Origin: Deinococcales bacterium
GTDB taxonomy: Bacteria; Deinococcota; Deinococci; Deinococcales; JAAFIG01
DNA: 64,000 nt
Assembly: GCA_031414595.1 (NCBI GenBank)
Contig: JANNVX010000086.1
Span: 1 to 64,000 of the forward strand
Direction of reading: 5' to 3'
Below are positions 25,901 through 55,499 of this stretch, piece after piece. The notes under the pieces were generated by a model. It ran no database searches. It was not told the origin of the DNA and saw only the letters and a program-made list of their open reading frames with translations. The stretch's first letter is position 1, and each line of letters begins with the position of its first letter. The position numbers were made by a program, and so were the translations under genes.

Positions 25901-27511
25901 CGCAGCGTCATCGGCGCTTTGTTGGGCAGCAGCAGCCGCAGCCATTGCATCATCAGCAGTTTGTTGGGCAGTTTCGGCGGCAGCAGCAGCAGCGTCGGCA
26001 GCTTCTTGGGCAGCAATGGCAACAGCCATTGCGTCGTCGGCAGCTTGTTGTGCATTTGCAGCCGCATCAAGTGCATCGTCAGCGCTTTGTTGGGCAACTT
26101 CTACGCCAGCAGTTGCGTCATCGGCGGTTTGTTGGGCAGCAGCCGCCGAAGCAAGTGCGTCGTCGGCGGTTTGTTGGGCAGCAGCAGCAGCAGCTAATGC
26201 GTCATCGCCTGTTTGTTGGGCAGCATCGGCAGCCGCTTGGGCAGCTTCAGCCGCATCTTGGGCAGCCGTAGCGCGGGCAGCCACAACAGCAATGTTGGCA
26301 TCGGCAGCCGCTTGGGCAGCCATAGCCGCTCTTTGGGCAGCATCGGCAGCCGCTTGGGCATCTCTGGCTTGTTGAGCCAAGGCAGCAGCATTGGCATCGC
26401 CGTTTTTGGCAGCCAGTGCAGCAGCTTGGGCAGCAGCATCGGCAGCCGCTTGGGCAGCACTAGCACGAGCAGCCAAGGCAACAGCATTTGCGTCACTCGA
26501 GGCTTGGGCAGCTTTAGCAGCATCAAGCGCAGCTTGGGCAGCGTCAGCAGCTTTTTGGGCGGCAGCCAATGCGTCATCGGCGGTTTGTTGGGCAGCCACA
26601 GCAGCAGCAGCAGCAGCGTCAGCAGCGCCACCAGCAGCATCGGCGGTTTGTTGTGCGCCAGCCGCAGCAGCGTTTGCACCAGCCGCAGCGTCTTGTGCAG
26701 CCATGGCAACAGCCATTGCGTCGTCAGCAGCTTGTTGTGCATTTGCAGCCGCGTTGATTGCGTCATCGGCGCTTTGTTGGGCGGTTTCTACACCAGCAGC
26801 AGCGTCGTCGGCGGTTTGTTGTGCGTTTGCAGCAGCAGCCAGTGCATCATCACCTGTTTTTTGTGCGCCAGCCGCAGCAGCAGCAGCATTTGCAGCGCCG
26901 TCATTGGCTTCTTGGGCAGCAGCAGCCGCAGCTTCGGCGAGGTCACGGGCTTGGGTTGCAATTTCTTCAACTCGAGCCAAATCGTCGGCGGTGACTGCAT
27001 TGTCCTCGAGTTCGGCAACGCGAACACCGAGTTGGGCAAGGTCAGCAGCCAATTCTTGGATCGCGTTTTGCAAGACAACCAAGTCAGCAGCAGTCAAGAA
27101 GTTCTTGAGGTCGTCTTTGGTGGCAACGTTAGCTGGTAAACCTGGCGTTCTAGCAATTGCAGCGTCCAATTCGGCTTTGGTAGCGTACTTTGGAATACCG
27201 CATTCGCCATTGCGAACTGCGTCGAGCAAACGAGCGATGATAGCGGCGGCTTGGTAACGGGTAACAGCTTCGTTACCACGGTAAGTGCCATCTGGGAAAC
27301 CGCGAATGATACCGCAATTCGCAGCGACTTGGATGGCGGCGGATGCCCAGTGACCGGCTGGAACGTCTTTCAGTTCGGCTGGTTTCTGGTTCTGGGTTTG
27401 GGCAGTTGCTGGATCTACTTGCCCAGTCGGGTTTGTGCCTGTTTGCGCGAAAGCGGTTACACCCGCACTAAGCGCAGCAGTCAACAACATTGCAGCCGTG
27501 ATTTTCTTCAT
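22958..27511 (-). CDS. slpA: SlpA-type envelope protein: SLH domain, long coiled coil, outer-membrane beta-barrel
   Basis: Signal peptide; SLH DVPAGHWA...GFPDGTYRGNEAVTRYQAA; LNDLVVLLNQDVLSLQD and LREFTTL stalk motifs; beta-strand-rich C-terminus ending YSLTF. Confidence 0.9.
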   Translation of the reverse strand: MKKITAAMLLTAALSAGVTAFAQTGTNPTGQVDPATAQTQNQKPAELKDVPAGHWASAAIQVAANCGIIRGFPDGTYRGNEAVTRYQAAAIIARLLDAVRNGECGIPKYATKAELDAAIARTPGLPANVATKDDLKNFLTAADLVVLQNAIQELAADLAQLGVRVAELEDNAVTADDLARVEEIATQARDLAEAAAAAAQEANDGAANAAAAAAGAQKTGDDALAAAANAQQTADDAAAGVETAQQSADDAINAAANAQQAADDAMAVAMAAQDAAAGANAAAAGAQQTADAAGGAADAAAAAAVAAQQTADDALAAAQKAADAAQAALDAAKAAQASSDANAVALAARASAAQAAADAAAQAAALAAKNGDANAAALAQQARDAQAAADAAQRAAMAAQAAADANIAVVAARATAAQDAAEAAQAAADAAQQTGDDALAAAAAAQQTADDALASAAAAQQTADDATAGVEVAQQSADDALDAAANAQQAADDAMAVAIAAQEAADAAAAAAETAQQTADDAMAAAAAAQQSADDAAAGVEVAQQSADDALAAAATAQETADTALAAAEDAMVAAAAAQQSADDAAAGVEVAQQSADDALDAAANAQQAADDAMAAAGDAGDAAAAAAAAAEVAQQTADDALALAQEAQPAGDYATNDDLAGVAETANQARDLAEAVASALENLPEGVDPEAFAALADQVEATSIAADTALAQARELQDRYDELNGRIDDLEAQFGELGATVEGQADSIAALNDLVVLLNQDVLSLQDKVTQLERGLSVTNAALDDLAATAASQEDLESLREFTTLIRRDQTNLADRVGELEARVGRVESRVTAVEGRVTVLEANAFTVSGTIGLSYRRALIWREDGTGLGRDFDIDRLALPNGGFGFGFSSGTGDGSVSTNARTFSDFAGGDGGTNGTRTVGINGQSGQVVDTEGRIAPSATLVFTFKPRALTGGKTNGLGNNFSIGLVLTMVPAGIVNGAQATTGGPFTNLSGGRGTSLSFLGFSLSSLALTYNVGAAPLFINFGVNVPYAFTKFAMNTGGNGDGFVASLSGAGLLPLDPNLSIVYQSTLGLDGDSYYTVGAKGTLSLIQGLTGGAYISLAGEDIVGTGVRADSVTQFGVDFAGKLFGFVDLAGEWNASSLTQTLPALTTNRVASFVTVGLAFDPFTIAGNWRFVDDAWGSALTEGSANNTDGSTNDGPYADNQTGFGVTLGAKNLLGFLNVGAYFDSRSRITGSALGNGPARPAGINFQGGLLLSSMNTNGGATISGSTDFGVVVGLALAGFDLQTYFFSDAENAAGVATYGRSDLGVSIANAGKLIPGVNVVAGFNSSTNTVVAGTRTSIYAYVDTSLNLAGFTIAPKAYFGSQTGSGSLAGDNTTLGANITANGDFLLGSKVALGVAIDTRSGSANASTWLFSAGLSWANGPLPGSTFGVSFSTRTDIGRSGTGFGPSFAAPVPFSAWGSDAAASIVLTGIDFNFNYYGLAFRYGLFNHTNITGAPVVTWGSRFTIAYSLTF
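25485..26954 (-). repeat. Ala-rich AQQ(T/S)ADDA coding repeat tract bounded by an exact 24-bp direct repeat
   Basis: GCTTCGGCGAGGTCACGGGCTTGG at 25485-25508 and 26931-26954; many ~14-residue repeats between them. Confidence 0.9.
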
Positions 27512-33320: not shown

Positions 33321-34403
33321 ATGACTTTAGCCGCCACCCATCCAACTTTCAAAGCCCGTGGTTTAATAGAGCGTTGGCGCTCGAGACTGCCCGTATCCGA
33401 ACTCACCCCTGTCATTTCACTCGGCGAGGGCGACACCCCACTGGTTGAACTTCGTGGCACACCTGAATCTACGGACCGCGGTATTCGGCTTTTTGCCAAA
33501 TTCGACGGGGCAAACCCCACGGGCAGTTTCAAAGACCGAGGCATGACGATGGCAGTTTCTAAAGCACTCGAGGACGGAGCAAAAGCCATTGCCTGTGCCA
33601 GTACCGGCAACACCAGTGCAGCCGCCGCAGCTTATGCCTCCCGAGCCGGGGTTGACTGCATTATTGTGCTGCCTGCCGGGTATGTGGCAGCCGGTAAAAT
33701 TGCACAGACGATTCTAATGGGTGCAAAAATTGTGCAAATCGAAGGGAATTTTGATGATGCGCTGCGTTTGGTGCGTGAACTCTGCGAAGTCACACCAATT
33801 GCTCTGGTCAACAGTGTTAATCCGTACCGTATCGAAGGACAAAAAAGCATTGCCTTTGAAGTTGCCGAAAGTTTTGACTGGGATGCTCCCGAGTACCACG
33901 CCATGCCTGTAGGCAACGCAGGAAATATTACTGCCCACTGGAAAGGATACAGCGAATTATTTGCTGATAACACCATCCCCAGAAAACCGATTATGCTTGG
34001 TTTCCAAGCTGCTGGCGCAGCCCCGATTGTCTTAGGTCACGCTGTCGAAAAACCCGAAACGATTGCCACAGCCATTCGCATTGGCAACCCTGCCAGTTGG
34101 TGTTATGCCATCGGCGCACGAGACGAATCTGGTGGAGTCATCGAAGCTGTGACCGACGAAGAAATCCTAACTGCTTACCAATTTCTGGCAAAAGAAGGGA
34201 TGTTTTGTGAACCAGCCAGTGCTGCGGGTTTTGCTGGAGCATGGCGCATGATTAAAGAAGGTCGCATCCCAGACGGCTCGAGGATTGTTTGTACCCTGAC
34301 TGGACACGGCTTAAAAGACCCAACCACTGCCAGTAGTCTTGCCGGTCTCGAGAATCCTGTGCCAGCCACACTTGAGGCACTGCAACGGGCTATTGGGGTT
34401 TGA
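33321..34403 (+). CDS. thrC: Threonine synthase
   Basis: NPTGSFKDRG, CASTGNTS, PVGNAGN, EPASAA, TGHGLKD. Confidence 0.96.
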   Translation: MTLAATHPTFKARGLIERWRSRLPVSELTPVISLGEGDTPLVELRGTPESTDRGIRLFAKFDGANPTGSFKDRGMTMAVSKALEDGAKAIACASTGNTSAAAAAYASRAGVDCIIVLPAGYVAAGKIAQTILMGAKIVQIEGNFDDALRLVRELCEVTPIALVNSVNPYRIEGQKSIAFEVAESFDWDAPEYHAMPVGNAGNITAHWKGYSELFADNTIPRKPIMLGFQAAGAAPIVLGHAVEKPETIATAIRIGNPASWCYAIGARDESGGVIEAVTDEEILTAYQFLAKEGMFCEPASAAGFAGAWRMIKEGRIPDGSRIVCTLTGHGLKDPTTASSLAGLENPVPATLEALQRAIGV

Positions 34404-35278
34404 TGTTTAGTCTCGAGCCAGTCGCTGATGGTGTTTGGGCAGCCATTAGCCAAGACCCAACCTATGCCATGTCAAACGCTGCAATTATTGACCTTGGTGA
34501 TAAAACACTGGTTTTTGACTCGAGCATGTCGCCAGTGGCAGCACTCGAGCTACGGCAATTGGCTGAAGAAACCACAAAAAAACCTGTATCGTACTTAATA
34601 AATTCGCATCATCATTTGGATCATTGCTTGGGCAATCAGGTCTTTGCCGATACCACCATTATCTCGAGCAATACCACCAGAGATTTAATGCAGATGCGGT
34701 TTGCTCGGCTCGAGACAGAGAATTTTGCTGAGGCAATACTTGATTTGCAAAGACAAGTGGCAACCACGCCTTGGGAAAGGAATTTATTGGCTTTGGAACT
34801 TGCTGAACTCGAGATGTTGCAAGCCTTTATGCCCAATTTCAAACCAACTTTACCAAGTGTCACTTTCTCAGATTCTTTTGAATTGATTGGTTCAAAACGC
34901 ACTGTTCAAATCCAAACTTTTGGCGTTGGACACACCACCTTGGATGCTGTTTTGACCGTGGAAGAGGTACTTGTGACTGGTGATTTGGTCTTAAATCAGC
35001 ATTTGGCTTTTATGGGACATGGAAACCCCCAAAGTTGGTTAGAACGCCTTCATGACCTCGAGCAAATACAGGGCGTTGTGCAAATTATTCCAGGGCATGG
35101 TGATGTTGGTCAAACCAGTCTTGTTGAAGCAATGCGGCTTCAACTGCTCGAGATGATCGCTTTGGCAAGTGCAGCCCAAAACATTGCTACAGCCCAACCA
35201 CCAGCCCACTGGCTCGGGTGGGGTTTACCCGCCAGTTACCGTGCCAATCTCGAGTTTTTAAGCACAAAAGGGGTTTAA
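34400..35278 (+). CDS. MBL-fold metallo-hydrolase
   Basis: SHHHLDH, GHT, TGD and PGHG motifs. Confidence 0.9.
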   Translation: MMFSLEPVADGVWAAISQDPTYAMSNAAIIDLGDKTLVFDSSMSPVAALELRQLAEETTKKPVSYLINSHHHLDHCLGNQVFADTTIISSNTTRDLMQMRFARLETENFAEAILDLQRQVATTPWERNLLALELAELEMLQAFMPNFKPTLPSVTFSDSFELIGSKRTVQIQTFGVGHTTLDAVLTVEEVLVTGDLVLNQHLAFMGHGNPQSWLERLHDLEQIQGVVQIIPGHGDVGQTSLVEAMRLQLLEMIALASAAQNIATAQPPAHWLGWGLPASYRANLEFLSTKGV

Positions 35279-35279
35279 T

Positions 35280-35561
35280 ATGGACTTAACAGAAATTACA
35301 CTTGAAGATTTTTCGCCGCTCGTAACCCAAGAATTTAAGCTCGAGGGCAGCGAGGTCGCCTTTACCTTGCTCGAGACAAAACCCTTAAATACCCATGAGG
35401 GAGCGCCACGTAGAGCTTTTTCTTTGTTGTTTGCGTCTCCAGTCCCAGCCCCTCAAGGCACATATGCACTGCTGCACACTTCGCTTGGACGGCTCGAGAT
35501 TTTTCTTGTCCCCATTGCAAAAGCTGGTGAAGGTGTGCAGCTCGAAGCGGTTTTTAGTTAG
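35280..35561 (+). CDS. DUF6916-like small protein
   Basis: R.AFSLLF...PQGTY.L.H..LG.LEIFLVPI...EAVF pattern. Confidence 0.8.
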   Translation: MDLTEITLEDFSPLVTQEFKLEGSEVAFTLLETKPLNTHEGAPRRAFSLLFASPVPAPQGTYALLHTSLGRLEIFLVPIAKAGEGVQLEAVFS

Positions 35562-36021
35562 CACGGTGCATTTTGACATACACCCCTGTGGCTTCGGTCT
35601 CGAGTTCGGTAAAGCCCATGCGTTTGTACCAGTCCCGAGCATGATTATTGATTTCGACATGCAAGGTAATATCTAAACCAGACTTTTTTGCTTCTATAAA
35701 TAACTGCTCGAAACACCACTTGGCAATGCCGCGCTTTTGGTAGGGCGGACTGACAATAATATCCATTAACCGAATTTCGCTGCTTCTATGCACATAAAGC
35801 CGCCCGACTGGAACACCCTCCAGTAAAATCAAATCAAAAGCCGCGCCTTGGTAATGCTGATAATAGTGACTGCGTTGAGCCAAAAACTGGCTCTCGAGGA
35901 AAACTTTTTTCTGCTCCAAAGTCCACGGCACAAGACTCATCTCTTCGGCTCGAGATTCGGTATAAAGCCCGAGCAGAAACGGAATGTCCGCTTCTGCTTC
36001 GGTTTGCAAGGCAATGTCCAT
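35554..36021 (-). CDS. GNAT acetyltransferase
   Basis: FL..LY.ESR.EE, QF.AQ..HY, PPYQKRGIA, LHV..NN.A..WY.RMGF. Confidence 0.9.
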   Translation of the reverse strand: MDIALQTEAEADIPFLLGLYTESRAEEMSLVPWTLEQKKVFLESQFLAQRSHYYQHYQGAAFDLILLEGVPVGRLYVHRSSEIRLMDIIVSPPYQKRGIAKWCFEQLFIEAKKSGLDITLHVEINNHARDWYKRMGFTELETEATGVYVKMHRAN

Positions 36022-36028
36022 ACTGACA

Positions 36029-37042
36029 TTAAACCATGTAGGTGTTGGTGAACCCAGAGCGCAACCCAGAGCGTAAATCGTTTAAGCGTGGGTGCATTTC
36101 AGAGACCGACTCAAGAACCCGCCGAACCCCATTTTTCTCGAGGTACAGCGTATTCTGGTTTTGGTTGCGCTTAAATTCTAGCACCCCTCGAGCGGTTTGT
36201 ACTTTAGCATTGCGTAAAGCCTTTAAGAAATTTAGGTTATCGCTATTGGCAGCTTGAATCAGCAGCGCCGCACTTTCTTGCCCAAGTTGCAGCACAGCAT
36301 CTTCGCCAAAACTCGAGAAAGCAGTGGTGGCACTTAGCTTGGTTAAGGCACTGACACTGATAGGAACTCGAGCCGAACGCAGCATCTCGAGGTTGGTGGC
36401 ATCCGAGGCGATGATGTGCAAATGAGCGGGTTTGAGGGCTTTAATCTGCTCGAGAACAGCCGCCCAATCTTCGGAGACAATTGTTTGCAGAACCTGACCG
36501 CCAGCACTTTCAAAGCCGCTTCTGAAGGCATAAGGCAAGTCGTATCCTGCTTCGCGCATACTGCAAACAATCACGGACGTGTTGCCGCGCCCAATGTTAC
36601 TTTTGCGTTGGTTGGCAACAAAACCGCCCAATGCCCATTCGGATTGCCAGAGTTTTAGGCTGTTAGAAAGAATAAATGGACTGGTCTCGAGGGCTGGAAT
36701 TTTAGCACCAAATTCGTTGCAAATGGCGGGTAAGGCGTACTGCTCGAGAATCGGGCGCAGGGCATCGGCATACCCATCACCAAGCGAAACCAGTACATCA
36801 AAGGTTTTGGTCTCGAGAATTTGGGCTAAGGCTCGAGCGGCGGATGTGGTGGTGCTGCCAGCCTCGACAAAGGTAAGTTCAAAGTTCTGGTTTGGGGTTA
36901 AGCCGCTTAAAAACTGGCTCGAGAAGGCTTTGGGGGACAGTGCCAGTACCCGCAGTCTATGCGGGGCAGCTTGGGCAACAATGCCAATGGCGGGAATGGC
37001 AGCGCCAACCCCAAGGGCTTGTAAGAAATCGCGTCTTTTCAT
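36029..37042 (-). CDS. Tat-exported type I periplasmic-binding-fold protein (LivJ-like)
   Basis: MKRRDFL Tat signal; YDLPYAF..GFE.AGG; no permease or ATPase genes adjacent. Confidence 0.7.
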   Translation of the reverse strand: MKRRDFLQALGVGAAIPAIGIVAQAAPHRLRVLALSPKAFSSQFLSGLTPNQNFELTFVEAGSTTTSAARALAQILETKTFDVLVSLGDGYADALRPILEQYALPAICNEFGAKIPALETSPFILSNSLKLWQSEWALGGFVANQRKSNIGRGNTSVIVCSMREAGYDLPYAFRSGFESAGGQVLQTIVSEDWAAVLEQIKALKPAHLHIIASDATNLEMLRSARVPISVSALTKLSATTAFSSFGEDAVLQLGQESAALLIQAANSDNLNFLKALRNAKVQTARGVLEFKRNQNQNTLYLEKNGVRRVLESVSEMHPRLNDLRSGLRSGFTNTYMV

Positions 37043-37053
37043 GGGTAGACTCC

Positions 37054-37569
37054 TTATCCCCTTGGTGGGAAAACACCTTGCAGGGCAATACAAAAATTAA
37101 CCACCAAATACGGCATTTGGTTGTTGTGGGGTAGGCTACTCCCAGCCGGTGCAAGACTTGGGGCAAGAATTGTGTTAGGTGCAGCATTGACATAGGGTGT
37201 TTTGCCAACAACCCGAGCAGGCACAGAACCGCTTGGGCTGTTGGTGTCACCAACGGCATTCAATGCTCCAAAGGTGTGATTGTGCTGTGGAATCTCGGTT
37301 TCCAATAAAGTCACATTGCTTTCACCAGTGGTTTCGCCCAAGCTGTAAAACGATAAGCCAGGTCCTTGACCCGGTTGCAGTGGGCTGCGTCCTTGTAAAT
37401 TGGGTAAACCAAAGGTGGTTCGCCCGTCACCACCGTAGGTTATACCGAGCAAACTAAACAAAGCCGTATTTTGCGAAATAGATATAAGTTGTCCATCACA
37501 AGTTGCCCAGCCTCTCGGGGCAAAGTTAAAACCGACCATCCTGATTTCAGCTACAAATTGATCTGACAT
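37054..37569 (-). CDS. Tail-collar domain protein 3 (microcystin-dependent MdpB-like)
   Basis: FVAEIR..GFNFAPRGWA.CDGQ, TYGGDG.TTF.LP.LQGR, PHNNQMPYL..NFCIALQGVFP. Confidence 0.92.
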   Translation of the reverse strand: MSDQFVAEIRMVGFNFAPRGWATCDGQLISISQNTALFSLLGITYGGDGRTTFGLPNLQGRSPLQPGQGPGLSFYSLGETTGESNVTLLETEIPQHNHTFGALNAVGDTNSPSGSVPARVVGKTPYVNAAPNTILAPSLAPAGSSLPHNNQMPYLVVNFCIALQGVFPPRG

Positions 37570-37578
37570 AGAAGCTCC

Positions 37579-38097
37579 TTATGTTTGCGTTGGGAAAATA
37601 CCAAACAGCGCAATAATAAAATTGACTGCTAGAATCGGTTGGATGTTGTTGTGTGGTTGTGAACCACCCGCATTACCAACGGTGCCGGCGTTCATATTGA
37701 CACTTGGACTTTCGATAATATGCAAATCAATATCGGCTACCCCAAGAGTCACAGTGCTGCTTGGTACACCTGTACTGCCTGTACTGCTCGAGACAACAAC
37801 CGCGTGGGTGTGTTGCGGGATTTGCTGGCTAATCAGTGTAACGCTTTCTGTGCCGCTTTTTTCGCCAAGGGTACGGCTACCTAACCCACTTCCTGTCCCT
37901 TGATGAACGGGTATTCGTGAACGTAAATCTGGCAGGGCAAACGTGCTTTGTCCATCGCCCCCATAAGTTGTGCCAATCAATGCAAATAAAGCGTCGTTTT
38001 GGGAAATAGCTTGTAATGAACCATCGCAAAATGCCCAACCAACAGGAGCAAAATTTCCACCGAACATCCTGATTTCACCAATATAAGGATTACTCAT
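37579..38097 (-). CDS. Tail-collar domain protein 2
   Basis: YIGEIRMFGGNFAP.GW..CDG, TTYGGDG, PHNNIQP. Confidence 0.92.
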   Translation of the reverse strand: MSNPYIGEIRMFGGNFAPVGWAFCDGSLQAISQNDALFALIGTTYGGDGQSTFALPDLRSRIPVHQGTGSGLGSRTLGEKSGTESVTLISQQIPQHTHAVVVSSSTGSTGVPSSTVTLGVADIDLHIIESPSVNMNAGTVGNAGGSQPHNNIQPILAVNFIIALFGIFPTQT

Positions 38098-38107
38098 CTT
38101 GCTCTCC

Positions 38108-38608
38108 TTAGTTCCGACTCGGAAAAATGCCAGCTAAGGCAATACAGAAACTAATCACCGAATACGGCTGCATATTGTTGTGTGGTTGTGAACCACCCGC
38201 ATTACCAACGGTTGAAGCCTGTAAAACCGCTCCGTTATTTTGTGCCGCATAAAGTTTTGCTGCACCATTGGCAAAACTGTTATTGGTCGGTATGGCGGCT
38301 GCACTAGCACTGCTCGAGGCATTCAGGGTGTGGGTGTGGCTTGGCATTTGGCTGACAACTAAAGTATGGGATTCCGAGCCACCCACTTGCCCTTGTGTAA
38401 AACCAGACCCCATATGAATTGGGGTACGACCTTGAAAATTCGGTAAGGCAAAAGTGGTTTGCCCATTACCACCATACGTTGTGCCTAGTAAACTAAATAA
38501 GGCTTGATTTTGATTGATGGGTAGAAATTGCCCATTGCATAATGCCCAAAATTTAGGCGGAAAATTAAAAGCCATCATGCGGATTTCACCAATAAATGGA
38601 TCTGACAT
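38108..38608 (-). CDS. Tail-collar domain protein 1
   Basis: FIGEIR...FNFPP..WA.CNGQ, TTYGGNG, PHNNMQPY. Confidence 0.92.
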   Translation of the reverse strand: MSDPFIGEIRMMAFNFPPKFWALCNGQFLPINQNQALFSLLGTTYGGNGQTTFALPNFQGRTPIHMGSGFTQGQVGGSESHTLVVSQMPSHTHTLNASSSASAAAIPTNNSFANGAAKLYAAQNNGAVLQASTVGNAGGSQPHNNMQPYSVISFCIALAGIFPSRN

Positions 38609-38620
38609 AAGACCCCTCCT

Positions 38621-41473
38621 TTAGAATGTTGGAACAACCACGGTACAAGTACCATAACCGGGGGTAGCACTGCCTAAAATACTTGTTTTGCCAGCAGTAT
38701 TTAAATTACTGCGTGGAGCATCTGACAACCAAGAGGTTACAGTTGCAGCACTGGTCAAAGGTGTGCCAGTTGCCCCGTGCAAATTAAAGGTATTTGCAGC
38801 GACTCGGCGCAAAAGATAGTTGTTTGCATTTACATCCGAGAAATTGATGTTATTGCTTACGGCGTTTAAGCATACGGTTGCCCCTGTGCCACCTGAAGTA
38901 CCACCTTGGACTTGAATGCCTGTAATCGGAAGCGGGTCAGTGCTTGTGGCGGTATTGCTCAGTAACGAGAGTTGTAAATTAGCGGTCGAAGTCGGTGCAG
39001 AACCAGCATTGACTAGGATACCAGCACCTTCAGCGTCAAGTACAGTATTGGTTTCAATCAAAGCCTGTAAAGTAGCTGCTTGACGCAGGCGGATGTCCAT
39101 ACCAGCACTTGCGCCAGTGTCTGCCCCAAGGTGCAAATCTATGGTGTTGCCTTTGATTCGTAACTTATGGGTTTGGGCTGGGGTATCGGCATCTATGCGA
39201 ATACCAGAACCATCCACTGTAATTAAATCTATGCGGTTATCATCTATGGTGGTGGTGGTTGCGCCACTGCTTTGGTACTGGGTGTTAATGCCATAAAAAG
39301 CATTCTCGCGGATACTGGTTTTCTCGACCTTCAAGACCATCCCTGCACTCGAGCCGACAACCGTATTGACCCTGATTCCACTGCTGTCACCTGCTTGAAT
39401 CCGCGAAGCCACTGTGGCTGCATTGCCAGAAGTTACAGCCACTGTACCAATCACCTCTAAGGTGTTGCTACTTGTACCACTGGCGGTGTACAGCACACCA
39501 TCATGGGTGGTTACAGCTGCCCCCACATTGTTGATTGTTACATCCTCGAGCCGTAGTAAATTTGTGCCAGTGTTTGGACTGGTTTCCACACCTTCGTTCT
39601 GCGAGTTGCTGATTCGCATATTTTTCAAGCTAACCGAACCAAATTGGGTGGCTAAATTTACGCCATCGGCAGTATGACCCGTTAAAATCCCGCCGCTTTC
39701 GGCAGTTGTGCCTGTACCTGTCACAGCAAACGAACCCGTGGTGTTGGTTAATTGAATGCCGTTTGCACCTCCACTCGAGGCGACTCTGGTTAAACTCACT
39801 GCCATTGTACCGTTGGTGATGTTCACAGCTTGGTTTGCACCTGCGGCAATACTGGCGTTCGTTACAGTTAGCGTACCGCCAGCCGTACCATTTAAGCCGC
39901 CAAACGTTAAGCCTTTGATGGTGTTGCCTGTGGCTACGGTCATCGGGGTTTGAACCGTTGGGGCTGTACCAGCCACCGCTAGTGTCTCTACGCCAACCAC
40001 AAGGGCTTCGCCAGAACCAATCGCTTGTTGACCATTTTTTAAGACCAAGGCAGTTGTGTTGGTGCTGTTGCCTTTGAGGTAAATAAAGTCATTGATAGCC
40101 GTGGTGTTAGCTGCCGCCACATTGAGGCTCTGGGCATTCTGGAATGGTGCGTTGCTGCGTCCGTCGCCGCCAGCCGAGGCAGCCGAATCTATGTACCAAA
40201 CGGTATTGCTTGGGGCTGCAAGGGTTGCCGAGAAATTAGGGCTGGTGCAAGTCCCATCAGAAATCTGGTAATTAAACGAATCGGCTACTCGAGAATTGAC
40301 CAATGGACGAATTGTGACTGTGCCAGTTGAAGCGTTGGCAATGCCAAGATTACCGCCGTTGGTGGTGGTAGCACTGGCAATAGCGCGGTTTTGTGGGGTC
40401 AGGGTCGCGCCGCCTAGGGCTGTAAACCGTGCTATCAGGGTAGCGTTTGCGCCCGTGTAGGCTTTTTCAGTGTTGCCAATAATGCCAGTTAGATTAGCGG
40501 CTGTGCCATTATCAAAGAAATTTCCGCCCATCCAAGCCGTGTCCACGCCTACACCCACAGTACGAACGCCGGGGATAAAGGTACTACCCGTTAAAGTTGT
40601 GCCGCACATACTGGTGATTTGTGGGCTACCGCCAAAGCTGGTGGCTCGAGCGCTTGCACCACTATTTGTGCCTTGTTCAGAAGTGCTTTCGGTGACTCGA
40701 TTGACATTATCGGTAAAGACTAAGAAGGTCATGCTATAACGGTAAGCAGGGTTGCCGTTTCCAGCGTCGCCTGCTTGTGGAACTTGCAGAGCCAGTGTAA
40801 CTGTGCCAGTTCCATTGGCGGCAATAGTACGGCTAGTGGCACTACTACGTGCCACATACGCATATTGCAAAATGCCTTCGCCTGTAATTGGATTAACATT
40901 GATTAATGACCCATTGGATGCTGTAGTCAGGGTGGTGATTTCGCTGCGCTGATAAATTTGCAAATCGGCATTATTATTGTCTACACAAACAGTGGCTGGC
41001 AAAGTGCAGCCTGTAGTTTTCATAGCATTAACAGGGATAAGATTATTGACATCAACCGTGCCACCCGCAAAGGTTTGAACATTCCTAAAAGCACTCCCGC
41101 CGCTATTATTATTCTGGCGGTATGCTACTAAGGTCAGGTTTGTACGAGCAGCCGCCGCGTTGTTGGTCACAGTAAACCGTGCCATCAGGTAACGGTTGGT
41201 GGTAGCTGGCACATCAATAGATTGAAAGACTTGGCTATTGAATACCAAGGTAGATTCAGTGATTGGTGTCAGGGCTTGGCTCGAGACTCGATTTGGTACA
41301 AATTTAGCGGTTTGTACTTTACCCTCTCCACCAAATTGAACGGTTAGGCTACCCAGCAGTGTGGGTGCAAACGGTTGCTCGAGAACTGGCGGTTTGGCTT
41401 CTGGTGTGGGCGCTTGAGGACAAGCCACCAAGAGCGCAGGCAGTAGTAAAAGTGCCGTCACATAGTGCTTCAT
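38621..41473 (-). CDS. 950-aa surface lipoprotein (N-terminal beta domain, Ig/cadherin-like segment, beta-helix)
   Basis: Lipobox LVAC; DSFNYQISDG; WYID.....GDGR...PF followed by Asn/Gly/Thr-rich beta-helix-like repeats. Confidence 0.85.
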   Translation of the reverse strand: MKHYVTALLLLPALLVACPQAPTPEAKPPVLEQPFAPTLLGSLTVQFGGEGKVQTAKFVPNRVSSQALTPITESTLVFNSQVFQSIDVPATTNRYLMARFTVTNNAAAARTNLTLVAYRQNNNSGGSAFRNVQTFAGGTVDVNNLIPVNAMKTTGCTLPATVCVDNNNADLQIYQRSEITTLTTASNGSLINVNPITGEGILQYAYVARSSATSRTIAANGTGTVTLALQVPQAGDAGNGNPAYRYSMTFLVFTDNVNRVTESTSEQGTNSGASARATSFGGSPQITSMCGTTLTGSTFIPGVRTVGVGVDTAWMGGNFFDNGTAANLTGIIGNTEKAYTGANATLIARFTALGGATLTPQNRAIASATTTNGGNLGIANASTGTVTIRPLVNSRVADSFNYQISDGTCTSPNFSATLAAPSNTVWYIDSAASAGGDGRSNAPFQNAQSLNVAAANTTAINDFIYLKGNSTNTTALVLKNGQQAIGSGEALVVGVETLAVAGTAPTVQTPMTVATGNTIKGLTFGGLNGTAGGTLTVTNASIAAGANQAVNITNGTMAVSLTRVASSGGANGIQLTNTTGSFAVTGTGTTAESGGILTGHTADGVNLATQFGSVSLKNMRISNSQNEGVETSPNTGTNLLRLEDVTINNVGAAVTTHDGVLYTASGTSSNTLEVIGTVAVTSGNAATVASRIQAGDSSGIRVNTVVGSSAGMVLKVEKTSIRENAFYGINTQYQSSGATTTTIDDNRIDLITVDGSGIRIDADTPAQTHKLRIKGNTIDLHLGADTGASAGMDIRLRQAATLQALIETNTVLDAEGAGILVNAGSAPTSTANLQLSLLSNTATSTDPLPITGIQVQGGTSGGTGATVCLNAVSNNINFSDVNANNYLLRRVAANTFNLHGATGTPLTSAATVTSWLSDAPRSNLNTAGKTSILGSATPGYGTCTVVVPTF

Positions 41474-41637
41474 TGTTCACCCCCCAAAGTATCTTGGAGT
41501 TCGTCCAAGGGATTATCTGGGAAGCCTGTTGTGCCTATGGGTAAGGACACACCAGTCATCGAATGCCATTGGTGCTTTTCAAGTTGTGGCGTGTAATACG
41601 TCTTTTTTGTGAAAATCGGATCGGTCGGGATCATCAT
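41470..41637 (-). CDS. Unannotated 55-aa peptide with RiPP-leader-like YxxPxL motif
   Basis: MMIPTDPIFTKKTYYTPQLEKHQWHSMTGVSLPIGTTGFPDNPLDELQDTLGGEQ*; AAAGGAGG RBS (second ATG, 41634, is better spaced); stop overlaps the lipoprotein start as ATGA. Below the ORF-track cutoff. Confidence 0.75.
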   Translation of the reverse strand: MMIPTDPIFTKKTYYTPQLEKHQWHSMTGVSLPIGTTGFPDNPLDELQDTLGGEQ

Positions 41638-41657
41638 TTCCTCCTTTGGTTTGTTCT

Positions 41658-41701
41658 ACTCTATCTAAAAAGCGTCACACAAGCGTCACACGGAGCGTTA
41701 C
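41658..41701 (-). promoter_or_regulatory. Promoter with three GT(G/A)ACGCT direct repeats upstream of a TAGAGT -10
   Basis: AGCGTCAC at 41671 and 41682, AGCGTTAC at 41694 on the + strand; -10 at 41658-41663. Confidence 0.65.
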
Positions 41702-41816: not shown

Positions 41817-42014
41817 GCGAGTAGCCCGCAAGCGACCCAAGCCCGAAGCGCCCAAAGCCCGAAGGTGCTGTTTCAGGGGCAAGACAGGTGCTGCTGTAGG
41901 GGTCAAGAAGGTGCTATTCCACGAGCAAGAAGCGCGAGTAGCCCGACAGCGACCCAGCCCGCTAAGTGCATCTTTAGGGTCAAGACAGGTGTTATTCCAC
42001 GAGCAAGAAGCGCG
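41817..42014. repeat. Composite array of GGTGCT-N9/10-CAAGA and GCG-N3/5-AGCCCG units
   Basis: Five 22-23-nt units (41864, 41887, 41910, 41965, 41988) and five shorter AGCCCG units; ATTCCACGAGCAAGAAGCGCG occurs twice, 78 bp apart. Confidence 0.8.
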
Positions 42015-42039
42015 GGTTTTAGCGTAGACTGAAAACCAT

Positions 42040-49657: not shown

Positions 49658-50377
49658 ATGAAAAACGTGTTGAAATTTGGTTTAGTTGGAATCGCCGCCC
49701 TCGCCCTCAGCAGCACCCTGACCAACAGCACTGCCCAAGGTCGTTTGGTGTTTGACGGCACATATGCTGTCAGTGGTAAAAACCCAGATGGTAGCGCCTA
49801 CGCTGGAACAATGACGATTAGCCCTTATGGTGATGGCTACCGTATGCTCCAAGTTTATGGCAGCACCACCTACCGTGGCATTGGCAATGACGTTGGTGAT
49901 TACTTGGCTGGTGCTTATTTGTCTGAGGGTGAACCAACTGTTACTTTGTACCGTGTTTCCGCCGCCAATACCTTGTCTGGTTACTGGCAAGATTATAGCA
50001 GCACCAAAGAAGGTACAGAAGAAGCCACCCTTGCCAGCCGTGCATTTTCGTTTGTGCCTAGCGTCCCAGTTGCCAACACATGGGATTACAGTGGCTCTTA
50101 CGCAATTAAAGGCACAAATCCAGATGGTAGTGCTTATACTGGCAGCATGATTCTGACCACCTACGGTGATGGCTACCGTGCATCGTTTGCCAGTGGCGGA
50201 GTTGCTTTGCGTGGAATCGCCAATTACATTGGTAACAACTTAGCCATCGCTTGGTTGACTGGCAACATCCCAAGTGTCAGCATTTTTACTGGTAATCCAC
50301 GTACTGGCAACCTGACTGGTTACTGGCAGGATTACAACAGCCTTAAAGAAGGCACAGAAACCGCCACTTGGCGCTAA
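49658..50377 (+). CDS. Secreted double beta-domain protein, paralog 1
   Basis: Signal peptide; two copies of G.Y...G.NPDGS.Y.G.M...YGDGYR...GYWQDY....EGTE. Confidence 0.85.
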   Translation: MKNVLKFGLVGIAALALSSTLTNSTAQGRLVFDGTYAVSGKNPDGSAYAGTMTISPYGDGYRMLQVYGSTTYRGIGNDVGDYLAGAYLSEGEPTVTLYRVSAANTLSGYWQDYSSTKEGTEEATLASRAFSFVPSVPVANTWDYSGSYAIKGTNPDGSAYTGSMILTTYGDGYRASFASGGVALRGIANYIGNNLAIAWLTGNIPSVSIFTGNPRTGNLTGYWQDYNSLKEGTETATWR

Positions 50378-50426
50378 AGTCCCCAAATCCTCTTGGGTTT
50401 TCAATGCACTAACATCATGGAGTTCT

Positions 50427-51149
50427 ATGAAAAATATTTTCAAATTTGGTCTAGCAGGAATTGCTGCTGTCGTTCTTAGCAGCACCCTCACCAACAGTGC
50501 TGCCCAAGAACGATTGCAGTTTGCTGGGACGTACAACATCAAAGGTAAAGGCACGGATGGCACAGCCTATACTGGTACAATGACGATTGCTCCGTATGGC
50601 GATGGCTATCGTCTGGCACAAAGATTTGGCGACGAAACTTACCGTGGTATTGCTACAGATATAGGCGATAACTTGGGTGTGGCACTGCTCAGTGGCGGTA
50701 AGCCCCAAGTGACGATTTACCGTGTCACAAGTGGCAACACCATGACTGGCTTTTGGCAAGATTACGACAATCCCAAAGAAGGCACAGAAGAAGCCACTGT
50801 ATCAGGAGCTACTGCTTTCTCGGGTGCTTCAAAAGTGCTTGCCGCCGCAACTTGGAACTACAGTGGTACATATGGCATCAATGGTAAAAATCCAGATGGC
50901 AGTGCCTACACTGGAACAATGGTTGTGTCCGACTACGGGGCTGGTTACCGTGTCAGGTTCACCTCTGGTGGCACAACGTGGCGTGGTATTGCCACCTACA
51001 TCGGAAGTTACTTATCAATCGCTTGGCAAGCTGGTGGCATACCCCAAGTTTCGGTTTTTGCGGGCAATCCAACCACTGGCGAACTCAAAGGTTATTACCA
51101 AGATTATGACAGCCTGAAAGAAGGCACAGAAACTGCAACCTTGAAATAA
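50427..51149 (+). CDS. Secreted double beta-domain protein, paralog 2
   Basis: Same signal peptide and duplicated domain as paralog 1. Confidence 0.85.
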   Translation: MKNIFKFGLAGIAAVVLSSTLTNSAAQERLQFAGTYNIKGKGTDGTAYTGTMTIAPYGDGYRLAQRFGDETYRGIATDIGDNLGVALLSGGKPQVTIYRVTSGNTMTGFWQDYDNPKEGTEEATVSGATAFSGASKVLAAATWNYSGTYGINGKNPDGSAYTGTMVVSDYGAGYRVRFTSGGTTWRGIATYIGSYLSIAWQAGGIPQVSVFAGNPTTGELKGYYQDYDSLKEGTETATLK

Positions 51150-51159
51150 CGATGTGGCT

Positions 51160-51195
51160 CGAGACCTCGAAAAAAGCGTACTTTTCGGGGTCTTT
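51160..51195 (+). terminator. Probable terminator after paralog 2
   Basis: AGACCTCGAAAA...TTTTCGGGGTCTTT hairpin with G-U pairs. Confidence 0.55.
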
Positions 51196-51230
51196 ACTTA
51201 TTCAAGTGGGCAATTTTTGAAGTTTCAATA

Positions 51231-51343
51231 GTTCGTCTCACGTTTGTGTGACGCTCGATGAGTATGCTGATGCGACGCTCATGCGACGCTCATGCGACGC
51301 TCCAAAGAATAAGGTGTGGCTCGAGCAGTACCAAGGAGAATTT
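51231..51343 (+). promoter_or_regulatory. Promoter block with 11-bp-period repeats (copy 2, one extra unit)
   Basis: Near-identical to 49556-49657 but ATGCGACGCTC occurs three times in tandem. Confidence 0.75.
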
Positions 51344-52063
51344 ATGAAAAATATTTTGAAATTTGGTTTAGTTGGAATCGCCGCCTTCGCATTCAGCAGT
51401 AGCCTGACCACCAGTACCGCCCAAAGCCGTTTGATGTTTGATGGTGAATACAGGGTAACGGGTCTAAACCCTGACGGTAGTGATTACGGCGGGGCAATGA
51501 CCATTGCTCGTTATGGTGATGGGTATCGCATTACCCAAGCCTTTGGTAGCGATACCTATCTTGGAATTGGCAATGATATGGGCGACTACTTAGCTGGGGC
51601 TTTTATTTATAATGGCAAACCAGTTGTTAGCTTGTATCGTGTTATCGATGCCAACACCTTGTCTGGTTTCTGGCAAGAATTTGACAGTACCAAAGAAGGT
51701 CAAGAAAAAGCAGTCCTTAACAATGCCACATTTTCGTTAATTCCAGCTGCCCCTGTTGCAACCACCTGGAATTACAGTGGTACTTATGGTATCAAAGGCA
51801 CTGCTCCCAGTGGTGCGGCATATACCGGAACGATGGCGCTGACAAACTATGGTGATGGCTACCGTGCTTCTTATGTCAGTGGTACGACAACTTGGCGAGG
51901 AATTGCCAGTTACATTGGTAAGTACCTAGCAATTTCTTGGCAAGCAGGAAATAATGTTCAGGTTTCGATTTTTGAAGGCAATCCACGTACTGGCGACCTC
52001 AAAGGCTACTGGCAAGATTACAATAGCCTAAAAGAAGGCGCAGAAACCGCAACACTAAAATAA
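51344..52063 (+). CDS. Secreted double beta-domain protein, paralog 3
   Basis: Start reassigned to MKNILKFG at 51344 behind AAGGAG; same duplicated domain. Confidence 0.85.
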   Translation: MKNILKFGLVGIAAFAFSSSLTTSTAQSRLMFDGEYRVTGLNPDGSDYGGAMTIARYGDGYRITQAFGSDTYLGIGNDMGDYLAGAFIYNGKPVVSLYRVIDANTLSGFWQEFDSTKEGQEKAVLNNATFSLIPAAPVATTWNYSGTYGIKGTAPSGAAYTGTMALTNYGDGYRASYVSGTTTWRGIASYIGKYLAISWQAGNNVQVSIFEGNPRTGDLKGYWQDYNSLKEGAETATLK

Positions 52064-52172
52064 GAAACCAGCCCTCGAGACTCCAGAAACATAATTTTTT
52101 GGAGTTTTTGCTCCCGCCAACGCAAAACAAATAAGCGCTGACTCGAGTACCACAAGTACCACTCGGAGGCTT

Positions 52173-54010: not shown

Positions 54011-54019
54011 GGCGCTATT

Positions 54020-54232
54020 TTACTTTTTTAAGTACCATTGTGCAGCCCTTAGCCCAACCAACAACCCCAAAAAAGCCCCAAGCACCATACTTTGGCTTCT
54101 CGAGAAGATAAAAACTCCAAGCATTGCCCCAAGCAAAACACCAAGTATCGGAAACAAAAACCAGATGTGCAAACGGTGCAAGCGTTCAAAGGCATCTTGT
54201 AAAATAATGGTGGTTATCTCGAGCCATTTCAT
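54020..54232 (-). CDS. Small membrane protein
   Basis: Two hydrophobic helices; TAGACT 6 nt before ATG; directly upstream of aroB. Confidence 0.65.
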   Translation of the reverse strand: MKWLEITTIILQDAFERLHRLHIWFLFPILGVLLGAMLGVFIFSRSQSMVLGAFLGLLVGLRAAQWYLKK

Positions 54233-54313
54233 GTTGTAAGTCTAGTCTAAAAACCTAAAATATGACATAATTTAGGGCATTGCGTACTTTGGTTGGTAAA
54301 GGGGATTAGCAGC

Positions 54314-55348: not shown

Positions 55349-55391
55349 TAAGTGGCGGGTGAACGACTTGTATAAATATCGTTCTCTCTAA
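55331..55391 (-). ncRNA. Predicted ~60-nt two-hairpin small RNA antisense to the synthetase 3' end
   Basis: Downstream of a near-consensus promoter; hairpin GAACGA/TCGTTC, then terminator CCGCCAC-N8-GTGGCGG-TTTTT; no ORF. Confidence 0.55.
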
Positions 55392-55396
55392 GCAAG

Positions 55397-55425: not shown

Positions 55426-55499
55426 CAAATCAACATGTACACAAATCAACAAATCCCAGACCTCGAGCCTACCTCATGAGGAAAAGTTAGGATGAAACC

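Follow-up and report, generated by a model that had tools for sequence, protein, structure and literature searches.

The 64,000-nucleotide (nt) window analyzed here, from contig JANNVX010000086.1 of a Deinococcales bacterium (assembly GCA_031414595.1), carries a compact locus encoding three paralogous phage tail-collar proteins, which we call ColA, ColB, and ColC. Packed around them are genes for a GNAT acetyltransferase, a DUF6916 protein, a 950-amino-acid (aa) lipoprotein, a binding-protein-like protein with a twin-arginine translocation (Tat) signal, and a 55-aa peptide, pep55. This locus is almost certainly a copy of a real, conserved bacterial cassette that does not belong to a phage. As judged from gene neighborhoods, the core of the cassette is the ColABC triplet together with the GNAT and DUF6916 genes, with a giant protein of immunoglobulin (Ig)-like and beta-helix domains as a frequent partner. 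The cassette is widespread and apparently undescribed: we found no paper describing it and none containing the term "DUF6916", in a search that lay outside subscription journals and supplements. No paper was found holding both "tail collar" and "T9SS" (type IX secretion system), and among the papers matched, PF07484, the Pfam Collar family, appeared only in the virophage paper discussed below.

A scan of one genome per species with the collar proteins returned at least 598 stretches encoding relatives. The best 80 of these by score, with proteins 51-62% identical to ColB, are referred to below as the distant loci; they are not independent samples, and the hidden Markov models (HMMs) used to annotate them were built from the window's own family. 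By record title, they span about eleven phyla: Chloroflexota, Bacteroidota, Rhodothermota, Acidobacteriota, Pseudomonadota, Verrucomicrobiota, Bacillota, Myxococcota, Gemmatimonadota, Actinomycetota, and Eremiobacterota. One triplet is present in 69/80 distant loci and two triplets in a further 4/80 (73/80 together), accompanied by a GNAT gene in 71/80 and a DUF6916 gene in 63/80. A giant open reading frame (ORF) resembling the Ig and beta-helix part of the lipoprotein (Lipo950) occurs in 30/80 and the binding-protein family in 5/80. These partners lie close to the triplet, at median distances of 390 nt for GNAT, 547 nt for DUF6916, and 209 nt for the giant ORF, and of the 60 loci flanked on both sides by 2.5 kb or more, 53 have GNAT, 45 have DUF6916, and 25 have the Lipo950-like giant. 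Clustering of the 584 unassigned ORFs around the 80 triplets revealed no other family in more than 8 loci. The association of such triplets with GNAT, DUF6916, and large surface proteins, which the first-pass annotation of this DNA had put forward, is thus borne out across the distant loci. The cassette is also found on plasmids, with 73 matching plasmid records, and cultured Deinococcus strains have a plasmid-borne copy. A Rhizobium plasmid holds the same module, annotated as an Ig-domain protein, three tail fiber proteins, an N-acetyltransferase, and a small convergent gene, and not as rhi.

Within the order, ColB found matches in 14 of 41 genomes, 12 of which have exactly three tandem copies; of the other two, one adds a weak match on a different contig to its three tandem copies, and the other has a single weak, partial match. 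Ten order-level neighborhoods were compared, eight from the window's own family and two from another family. All eight same-family loci contain pep55, the lipoprotein, ColA, ColB, ColC, the Tat protein, and GNAT in this order, with DUF6916 adjoining, such that the expected co-conservation of the genes extends to the full set within the family and, for the core, far beyond it. The two other-family loci retain two lipoproteins, the triplet, and the Tat protein (the binding-protein-like gene being present in 10/10 loci); neither GNAT nor DUF6916 was found in them, and both of these complete genomes are without DUF6916 anywhere. DUF6916 is encoded in 12/41 genomes of the order, ten of which also have the triplet, and the remaining two are 82% and 57% complete. 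The same layout is seen on an annotated D. gobiensis plasmid, where the genes are labeled as hypothetical proteins, a right-handed beta-helix protein, tail fiber proteins, an "ABC transporter substrate-binding protein", and GNAT. Both this plasmid layout and the SlpA gene of the window are in keeping with an assignment of the DNA to Deinococcota.

The eight genes and domains named in the first-pass annotation were all recovered (Table 1), with Pfam backing the Collar, DUF6916, and GNAT calls. PF07484 matches ColA with E 8.4e-27 (93.4 bits), ColB with E 4.4e-29 (100.7 bits), and ColC with E 5.7e-28 (97.1 bits), all above the gathering score of 24. DUF6916 (PF21880) is matched with E 1.4e-24 and 86.4 bits, passing its gathering score of 27, and the GNAT belongs to Acetyltransf_1 (E 2.4e-10), while a Cadherin_5 match on the 950-aa protein stays below the Pfam cut-off. 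PADLOC-DB defense models gave no family for any of the 8 cassette proteins at E values up to 0.01. The seven minus-strand genes are tightly packed, with intergenic gaps of 7 to 12 nt apart from the overlap of pep55 and the lipoprotein gene, and the region has a G+C content of 0.48-0.50, equal to that of its flanks. Among sequencing runs, none from RNA was listed for the region, whereas four DNA runs from a single study contain it and may be its source, with small shares in five more. The ORF of the Tat binding-protein-like gene is listed from 37093, and its most likely start is codon 18 (37042), where the Tat motif begins. In the plus-strand region 34400-35561, DUF6916 starts 1 nt past the stop of an upstream metallo-beta-lactamase-fold gene that follows thrC, and it may therefore be transcribed with housekeeping genes and not with the cassette. 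The same may hold for two same-genus relatives.

Table 1. Features of the collar cassette and its promoter in the window (gaps are those separating each gene from the one before it in the operon)
Feature	Positions	Strand	Description
Two perfect 11-nt direct repeats GTGTGACGCTT	41670-41691	minus	Putative activator-binding site
pep55	41470-41637	minus	55 aa, signal peptide absent
950-aa lipoprotein	38621-41473	minus	Overlaps pep55 by 4 nt (ATGA)
ColA	38108-38608	minus	166 aa, collar and head domain, first of triplet; 12-nt gap
ColB	37579-38097	minus	172 aa, collar and head domain, second of triplet; 10-nt gap
ColC	37054-37569	minus	171 aa, collar and head domain, third of triplet; 9-nt gap
Tat-signal binding-protein-like gene	36029-37042	minus	337 aa counted from MKRRDFL; 11-nt gap
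GNAT acetyltransferase	35554-36021	minus	155 aa; 7-nt gap
DUF6916 protein	35280-35561	plus	93 aa, signal peptide absent; 8-nt overlap with GNAT 3' end

The surroundings of the cassette are those of a bacterial chromosome. The 52 other long ORFs of the window include lipA, thrC, mreC, glpX, dnaX, aroB, and an SlpA-type S-layer protein, and no phage structural family was found among them. Searching the 94.15%-complete genome returned no Sheath, Baseplate_J, or HK97-type capsid family; its Collar matches number three (ColA, ColB, and ColC), and it has one DUF6916. The reported absence of capsid, terminase, sheath, tube, and baseplate genes agrees with these searches, and the possibility that the triplet forms part of a prophage or contractile system encoded elsewhere is countered by the genome-wide family searches, the housekeeping flanks, and the distance of the phage matches. 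In the phage collection, the best ColB match is 38% identical, and the 330 matching places in 291 records are mostly single matches per record. Among 78 IMG/VR loci, 68 are without a strong short collar ORF, and the ten that have them divide into six loci with three such ORFs, two with a pair, and one each with six and with a single ORF. Two of the triplet-bearing viral contigs also hold a GNAT gene near the contig end, so these contigs may be bacterial DNA. Three small IMG/VR contigs of 2-5 kb (L109, L111, and L114) carry triplets of ~200-aa collar proteins that are 46-51% identical to ColB; no GNAT or DUF6916 is present on the DNA available, and these are possibly virophage-type triplets.

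The three collar proteins are paralogs whose identity follows their position in the operon. In a maximum-likelihood tree of 237 collar proteins, three clades correspond to gene position with support of 0.83 to 0.99, position-1 genes making up 65/71 tips of clade A, position-2 genes 68/78 of clade B, and position-3 genes 57/59 of clade C. Assigned by best match to the window paralogs, the gene order is A-B-C in 56/78 triplets and B-A-C in 6/78. Because the three clades track position, the triplication predates the spread across phyla, with one member per clade kept at each locus. This pattern is what an obligate A:B:C assembly predicts, short of being proof of it, and ColA, ColB, and ColC probably form a 1:1:1 heterotrimer, as judged from sequence and from analogy to the virophage DSLV2. 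Three consecutive Collar proteins of DSLV2 were shown experimentally to copurify 1:1:1, to look like 16-nm fibers, and to bind Synechococcus cells (PMC12724248). The heterotrimer suggested by the first-pass annotation is therefore supported indirectly, by exactly three tandem paralogs, one per ancient clade and mostly in A-B-C order, and by this precedent. A complex prediction of ColA, ColB, and ColC (44-row alignments each) with the mature Tat chain gave scores of 0.27 and 0.14, with the mark at 0.32, in a run without controls.

Across the three classes, 36 alignment columns are conserved in common, including the invariant H96, H98, H149, and N151 (ColB numbering). In the T4 fiber proteins gp12 and gp37, H-x-H motifs coordinate zinc or iron at the trimer axis. 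A sequence match of ColB to the T4 gp12 short tail fiber (1ocy) is weak (E 8.5e-4) and covers residues 6-73 only. ColA additionally matches Gp10_C at 24.2 bits, below the cut-off, and PHROG tail-protein families match the full length of the collar proteins (residues 7-159 of ColA). Within this conserved frame, a stretch at approximately residues 100-140 is variable, with a top-residue frequency of 0.35-0.45 as compared with 0.75-0.95 elsewhere. This variability fits a diversifying binding face. Codon-based positive selection among tail-collar paralogs (Z 3.703) has been reported for Candidatus Solibacter usitatus (PMC3174227).

The collar proteins begin with M-S-D/N-P-F/Y, and a hydrophobic leader is absent. 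Of 132 aligned collar proteins, 125 have Ala, Ser, or Gly as their second residue. These residues at the N terminus permit removal of the initiator Met and are typical sites of N-alpha-acetylation. The GNAT encoded in the cassette is not RimI, scoring 33.1 bits against the RimI equivalog TIGR01575, for which the cut-off is 86.4. Its nearest solved relatives, among them RimI, Naa50, and an N-terminal acetyltransferase from mycobacteria, are all weak matches (E 6e-5 to 5e-3). From these neighbors and from the conserved collar N termini, it could be proposed, tentatively and at less than even probability, that the GNAT acetylates the N termini of the collar proteins. By its genomic context the enzyme is dedicated to the cassette, with orthologs (at least 70 bits with a local HMM) within 2.5 kb of the triplet in 70/80 distant loci.

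The DUF6916 protein is predicted with high model confidence (predicted local distance difference test score, pLDDT, 95.3) to fold into a six-stranded barrel carrying an N-terminal helix. Foldseek searches of this model against PDB and BFVD returned no match at E up to 0.001, the top weak rows being phage baseplate or hub chains. In exhaustive structural alignment, the best Z score was 7.2, to barrels of the MrkH/YcgR-N type, followed by phage neck proteins at Z ~5. A role as an assembly factor or adaptor would be a guess. The orientation of DUF6916 relative to GNAT, scored in 45 distant loci, is convergent in 25 and same-strand in 20. Sixteen of the 25 convergent pairs overlap at their 3' ends, and in seven distant loci the overlap has precisely the 8-nt length that it has in the window. 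This convergent overlap may reflect conserved C-terminal codons or antisense coupling.

The gene directly following ColC encodes a protein with the N terminus MKRRDFLQALGVGAAIPAIGIVAQA, in which a twin arginine, a hydrophobic stretch, and an A-x-A site are recognizable. Its TAT_signal Pfam score of 18.7 bits lies below the 22.7 cut-off; the twin arginine is invariant in 15/15 homologs, and TatC is present in the genome. The window protein itself matches Peripla_BP_6 with 30.2 bits, just short of the 31.7 gathering score. A profile of the 15-member family matches solved binding proteins of the aromatic-acid type (4evq, E 3.2e-37; 4ey3, E 5e-29), and cassette-linked relatives from Chloroflexota and Bacteroidota qualify as full members of Peripla_BP_6, scoring 120-176 bits. 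On the basis of this family profile and the scores of the relatives, we consider the protein a degenerate member of the type-I periplasmic binding proteins by homology, its subfamily being without ~40 alignment columns of the full-size relatives. No ATP-binding cassette (ABC) permease or ATPase gene lies beside it in the window ORF scan.

Tat signals recur in the cassette on proteins of differing fold. At least 34 of the 80 distant loci contain a convincing cassette Tat-signal ORF, 28 being identified from a regular-expression screen with inspection (six implausible loci were discarded) and six from N-terminal extensions of DUF6916. The screen flagged 41 of 2433 ORFs near a triplet as compared with 10 of 2041 farther away. 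By kind, the 34 loci comprise 19 with Tat-signal DUF6916 paralogs, 4 with Tat binding proteins, 10 with proteins of 205-261 aa, and 1 with a protein of 385 aa. No distant locus has two kinds, and in approximately ten, the Tat gene directly follows ColC, as in the window. The 205-261-aa proteins have no Pfam family and show no profile similarity to DUF6916, GNAT, or the binding protein beyond the signal itself. Since other cassettes carry unrelated Tat-signal proteins, the conserved property appears to be a Tat signal on some partner and not a particular fold, which suggests co-export of the signal-less collar head. We regard such piggy-back export through Tat as possible, at somewhat better than one chance in three. 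The description of this gene as an orphan Tat-exported binding-fold protein holds as far as the Tat motif and the lack of adjacent ABC genes are concerned; it is not peculiar to this locus, being one of at least three interchangeable kinds of Tat partner.

The 950-aa protein has the lipobox LLVAC|P, with an L-x-[AGS]-C motif in 17/17 orthologs and paralogs, all of which are predicted lipoproteins. It consists of a beta-sandwich N-domain (~72-297), a cadherin/Ig-like domain (~334-417), and a right-handed beta-helix extending to the C terminus, consistent with the annotation of the D. gobiensis ortholog as a right-handed parallel beta-helix repeat protein. The N-domain model (pLDDT 74, best match Z 5.4) is a generic beta-sandwich with no clear fold match, and the domain is shared by paralogous lipoproteins of ~340 and ~605 aa in the cassettes of relatives. 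HMM positions ~330-950, which cover the Ig and beta-helix domains, are the part that matches giant neighbors in other phyla. Among 14 such giant neighbors scanned, 12 contain Big_9 and/or cadherin-like domains, and both of those from Dyadobacter end in a T9SS sorting domain. The lipobox in the lipoproteins and the T9SS domain in the Dyadobacter giants point to export of the giant partner by each lineage's own route. As read from these sequences, we lean toward an extracytoplasmic action of the collar head together with the giant protein, with slightly better than an even chance.

The repeat-bearing promoter noted in the first-pass annotation corresponds to a conserved pair of 11-bp direct repeats. 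Reading along the minus strand, a degenerate third copy GTAACGCT is followed by two copies of GTGTGACGCTT with an 11-nt period; next come a -10-like TAGATA, a Shine-Dalgarno sequence, and the start codon. A few bases separate the repeats from TAGATA, their distance to the pep55 start is 33 nt, and a -35 hexamer is absent. Direct repeats of 11 bp abutting the -10 element are a signature of SARP and PhoB/OmpR-type activators. This pair of repeats is probably the activator-binding site of the operon promoter, as judged from its layout and recurrence. The sequence GTGYGACGCT is found 4 times in the window, with 0.18 expected, and the tandem arrangement GACGCT-N5-GACGCT 10 times in the genome as compared with 1 for a reversed control. 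Of the 10 tandem sites, 9 are upstream of, and co-oriented with, a gene start, and several have TATACT or TAGAAT 3-8 nt downstream. The genes that follow encode a secreted Peptidase_C11, an S8 subtilase lipoprotein (succeeded by SIMPL and LytR-CpsA-Psr genes), a 772-aa lipoprotein, a Glu_cyclase operon, a P450, and secreted paralogs. A relative from the same genus, with a lipoprotein, pep55, and collar proteins that are only 53-65% identical, has retained the repeat ahead of the cassette, and in a second genus, a variant TGACGSC-N4-TGACGCT with a -10-like hexamer occupies the position upstream of the cassette. The cassette would accordingly belong, on the evidence of its motif, to a small regulon of exported proteins, and the sharing of this motif with genes for exported proteins weighs for an extracytoplasmic role. 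A sigma-70 scan also proposed TTAATA-18-TAAAAT (41775-41746); we judged the repeat-adjacent -10 more likely because the arrangement of repeat and hexamer recurs at other genes.

A candidate regulator is encoded elsewhere in the genome (contig C88, ~280377-289600), where a gene for a 957-aa BTAD, NB-ARC, and TPR protein of the AfsR/SARP-like type lies between two tandem sites that precede the Glu_cyclase operon and the P450 gene. No winged-helix domain was found by Pfam in its N terminus. An OmpR-family response regulator and histidine kinase pair, located ~4 kb away, is an equally open candidate. The promoter resembles those of the SARP/OmpR type in having two to three direct repeats of G(T/C)GACGCT with an 11-nt period next to a -10-like hexamer, an arrangement found at nine more places in the genome; it differs in that the candidate regulator has no winged helix by Pfam and that regulator binding is here a prediction. 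Within the window, four tandem secreted paralogs of 239, 240, ~240 (internal start), and 251 aa are encoded at 49658-52928 on the plus strand. They have no Pfam family and consist of a signal peptide and a duplicated ~110-aa unit (G-T-Y...G-K-N-P-D-G-S-A-Y...Y-G-D-G-Y-R...W-Q-D-Y), and the first and third are preceded by G(C/T)GACGCT arrays; the window's other two GTGYGACGCT copies lie ahead of this run of paralogs. Upstream of the cassette, imperfect direct repeats spaced 78-117 nt apart, with 70-91% identity, occupy 41817-42017, between a beta-ketoacyl-synthase-like gene and the cassette; their 20-nt core occurs twice in the window, both times in these repeats.

Taken as a whole, the locus may best be explained, with an even chance of the explanation being right, as the Deinococcota-type copy of this widespread cellular, non-phage cassette operating through the following mechanism. 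ColA, ColB, and ColC would fold in the cytoplasm and assemble into one A:B:C heterotrimer, held together by a metal site formed from the invariant H-x-H and QPHNN motifs. Ligand binding, probably of a glycan, would fall to a face formed by the fast-changing loops at approximately residues 100-140. Acetylation by the GNAT would be directed at the conserved Met-(Ala/Ser/Gly)-Asp/Glu-Pro-Phe N termini, which would be clustered on the collar face, and DUF6916 would serve as an assembly factor or adaptor. Because the head has no signal peptide of its own, we propose that it is exported in complex with the Tat-signal protein, whose gene directly follows ColC and which here has a degenerate binding-protein fold. 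Outside the cell, the head and the beta-helix lipoprotein would act in adhesion or surface recognition. Expression of the operon would be driven by an activator-dependent promoter, the 11-bp repeats of which are also found before secreted protease and lipoprotein genes.

Several observations weigh against this proposal, beyond the non-independence of the distant loci. The collar proteins are without an export signal, and their exit from the cytoplasm is something we infer. A Tat-signal ORF was not detected in 46/80 distant loci, and Tat is for this reason not a universal export route, unless partners are encoded elsewhere or were missed. The Tat signal on its own also says little, because such signals are usual in this subfamily of binding proteins, one solved relative being named "Twin-arginine translocation pathway signal". 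With the Lipo950 HMM, a giant partner was not detected within 10 kb in 50/80 distant loci, and in eight further distant loci, the giant neighbor is unrelated. DUF6916 is dispensable in some lineages, because two complete Deinococcus-like genomes that bear the triplet are without it, and its best structural matches fall within a common range. Equating the H-x-H motif with the gp12 metal site is likewise an extrapolation, because the gp12 match is weak and confined to the collar.

Among the alternatives, the most radical is that the collar genes are decaying tail-fiber genes of a prophage, tailocin, or virophage remnant with no cellular role. Such an origin could be read from the match of the collar and head module to phage tail-protein families (phrog_9116, E 2e-22 to 4.5e-28), from the label "tail fiber protein" that the Prokaryotic Genome Annotation Pipeline gives to the orthologs, and from the triplets on some viral contigs (six loci with three collar ORFs and one with six, of 78). 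It is very improbable, however, and the pattern of conservation already contradicts it: the ORFs are intact, their identity across about eleven phyla is 51-62% as compared with at most 38% to phage records, partners and gene order are fixed, and G+C is that of the flanks, in a setting of housekeeping genes such as lipA and thrC with no phage gene among the 52 other window ORFs and negative searches of the 94%-complete genome for sheath, Baseplate_J, and HK97 capsid families; of the triplet-bearing viral contigs, two may, moreover, be bacterial. A second alternative accepts the cassette and holds that each paralog forms a separate homotrimer with its own specificity, the triplet widening the target range. 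Known phage collar fibers such as T4 gp12 are indeed homotrimers, the central variable segment differs among the paralogs, and at 85% within-class conservation, a single column is class-diagnostic in all three classes together, so that sequence signatures of heteromerization are not striking, a point that also counts against the heterotrimer. Homotrimers remain a poor bet, as they would not account for the constant three copies with one per clade (exactly three in 12/14 matching genomes), for triplets or double triplets in 73/80 distant loci with their order kept across phyla, or for the 1:1:1 complex formed by the virophage triplet (PMC12724248).

The Tat protein, for its part, could be an ordinary periplasmic receptor for an aromatic or amino-acid-like ligand, with the head exported or released in some other way. 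The strong profile match to solved solute-binding proteins (4evq and 4ey3), the full Peripla_BP_6 domain of the cassette-linked homologs, and the regular occurrence of Tat signals in the subfamily are what such a receptor would show, yet the window version scores below the cut-off (30.2 as compared with 31.7 bits) and has lost ~40 columns, ABC permease and ATPase genes are absent nearby, and unrelated Tat proteins take its place in other cassettes, in about ten directly after ColC. We rate this reading as rather unlikely, only a little behind Tat piggy-back export itself. Less probable still, at about one chance in five, is a cytoplasmic complex of the collar trimer, GNAT, and DUF6916, with the exported neighbors co-regulated or merely linked. 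All five proteins are without signal peptides, the GNAT cofactor acetyl-CoA is cytoplasmic, and neither a giant protein (50/80) nor a Tat-signal ORF (46/80) is detected in many distant loci. The recurring partners are, however, all exported, whether lipoproteins, T9SS substrates, or Tat proteins, including Tat-signal DUF6916 in 19 loci; the fold family is that of a receptor-binding tip with no match to a defense-system model, and the promoter motif is common to secreted protease and lipoprotein genes. Finally, the head might serve interbacterial targeting in place of general adhesion, recognizing surface glycans of other bacteria in the course of predation, kin recognition, or a bacteriocin-like delivery carried out by the giant protein. 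This would agree with hypervariable loops on an invariant frame, with a patchy and plasmid-borne distribution (73 plasmid records; 14/41 genomes of the order), with the positive selection reported among the Solibacter tail-collar paralogs (PMC3174227), and with the binding of bacterial cells by the virophage homolog (PMC12724248). Against it stand the lack of a recurrent toxin, immunity, or lysis gene, no other family being present in more than 8/80 loci, and the lipobox of the beta-helix lipoprotein, by which it would be anchored to the membrane and not released; we consider it as improbable as separate homotrimers.

Returning to the proposed heterotrimeric head, its strongest form would combine all parts at once: in about eleven phyla, a phage fiber tip would have been domesticated into an obligate heterotrimeric, metal-clamped, N-acetylated, lectin-like head, which folds in the cytoplasm, is carried through Tat by an interchangeable signal-bearing partner (a binding-protein fold in the window, a DUF6916 paralog elsewhere), and arms giant beta-helix adhesins; in this bacterium, it would belong to a regulon of secreted proteases and lipoproteins run by one activator that reads the 11-bp repeats. 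The conjunction of all these features is unlikely, to a degree comparable with the cytoplasmic complex.

The closest known arrangement is that of DSLV2/Aquatic Virophage 1, which likewise has three consecutive, co-oriented, short PF07484 proteins with a variable head. The virophage triplet consists of virion genes beside capsid genes, unlike the chromosomal triplet among housekeeping genes analyzed here, and GNAT, DUF6916, Tat protein, and lipoprotein genes are not reported for the virophages; the two triplets are compared by description (PMC12724248). T4 gp12 (1ocy, 1pdi, and 5iv5), the C-terminal domain of gp10 (PF21939), and the tip of gp37 resemble the cassette proteins in the Collar domain, with the weak gp12 match, the sub-threshold Gp10_C match of ColA, and a putatively equivalent H-x-H motif. 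In contrast to these phage proteins, which are long homotrimeric fibers with a shaft and belong to a baseplate, the cassette proteins begin their collar at residue 6-8, have no shaft, and come as three paralogs, in a genome with no Sheath or Baseplate_J family. An analogy for export is offered by the Tat hitchhikers, of which the E. coli hydrogenase-2 pair HybO/HybC and the dimethyl sulfoxide reductase pair DmsA/DmsB are examples. There as here, a signal-less protein requiring cytoplasmic folding, probably with a metal, is encoded beside a twin-arginine partner; the partner in the cassette differs in being non-universal (34/80 distant loci) and variable in fold, and it is known here from genes alone.

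Short cellular tail-collar proteins have also been collected in COG4675, "microcystin-dependent protein", a family that the collar proteins of the window resemble in length and domain. RhiB is assigned to COG4675 and carries a Collar domain (PMC13133039; PMC6969944), and the Microcystis proteins MrpA and MrpB resemble RhiA and RhiB (PMC3328848), MrpC having later been recognized as a pilin with another fold (PMC12397347). Proteins of COG4675 have been detected in soil metaproteomes (PMC5579227). The Rhizobium rhiABC(D) operon differs from the cassette in that the Collar domain is, as reported, confined to RhiB, and its partner genes code for an outer-membrane protein and a LuxI/LuxR pair in place of GNAT and DUF6916. 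We know of no demonstrated cellular function for the COG4675 (MdpB/RhiB) family, the members of which are widely annotated as "tail fiber protein", inflating prophage predictions. The locus shows this tail-collar family as part of a fixed gene set that includes a dedicated enzyme, a DUF protein, exported partners, and, in the window, a recognizable regulatory site. What is new here is the Deinococcota layout, with its N-domain-sharing lipoproteins, degenerate Tat binding-protein fold, and lineage-specific 55-aa gene, together with the census of interchangeable Tat partners and the regulatory repeat with its regulon. If both the heterotrimer and its export hold true, the cassette would represent a rare cellular reuse of a viral receptor-binding module and an unusual Tat passenger.

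The 55-aa peptide had been counted as a member of the cassette in the first-pass annotation, a status that it does not keep beyond the family. Homologs of pep55 are found upstream of the lipoprotein gene in 8/8 same-family loci and in none of the two other-family loci or the 80 distant loci, and pep55 is hence not part of the core. No Pfam, NCBIfam, PHROG, or PADLOC family was found for it. A conserved core, Y-x-x-P-x-L-E-x-H-x-[WYF]...T-G-[VT]-x-L-[PS]-I-G, is shared by the 8 family members, and pep55 and the lipoprotein gene are translationally coupled at the start of the latter. We also considered pep55 as a leader of a ribosomally synthesized and post-translationally modified peptide, from a likeness of its Y-x-x-P-x-L-E core to such leaders, and rejected this because the cluster contains no cyclase, protease, or recognition-element gene.

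Elsewhere in the window, 11 kb from the cassette, a 1517-aa protein encoded at 22958-27511 on the minus strand combines an SLH domain with an SlpA beta-barrel domain (187.5 bits) and represents the Deinococcus/Thermus type of S-layer anchor protein. The stretch at 14001-18000 has a low G+C content of 0.36-0.38 as compared with ~0.48. Besides ORFs that match no family, it encodes an AAA_22 ATPase and a DNA-methylase-like protein, and it may be a mobile island for restriction or defense. Further low-G+C stretches are located at 1-2000 and 54001-56000, the latter with a gene for a RelA_SpoT-domain protein. On the minus strand at 58731-60245, a 504-aa protein contains Cu2_monooxygen and Cu2_monoox_C, both halves of the copper type II ascorbate-dependent monooxygenases, enzymes best known from animals.

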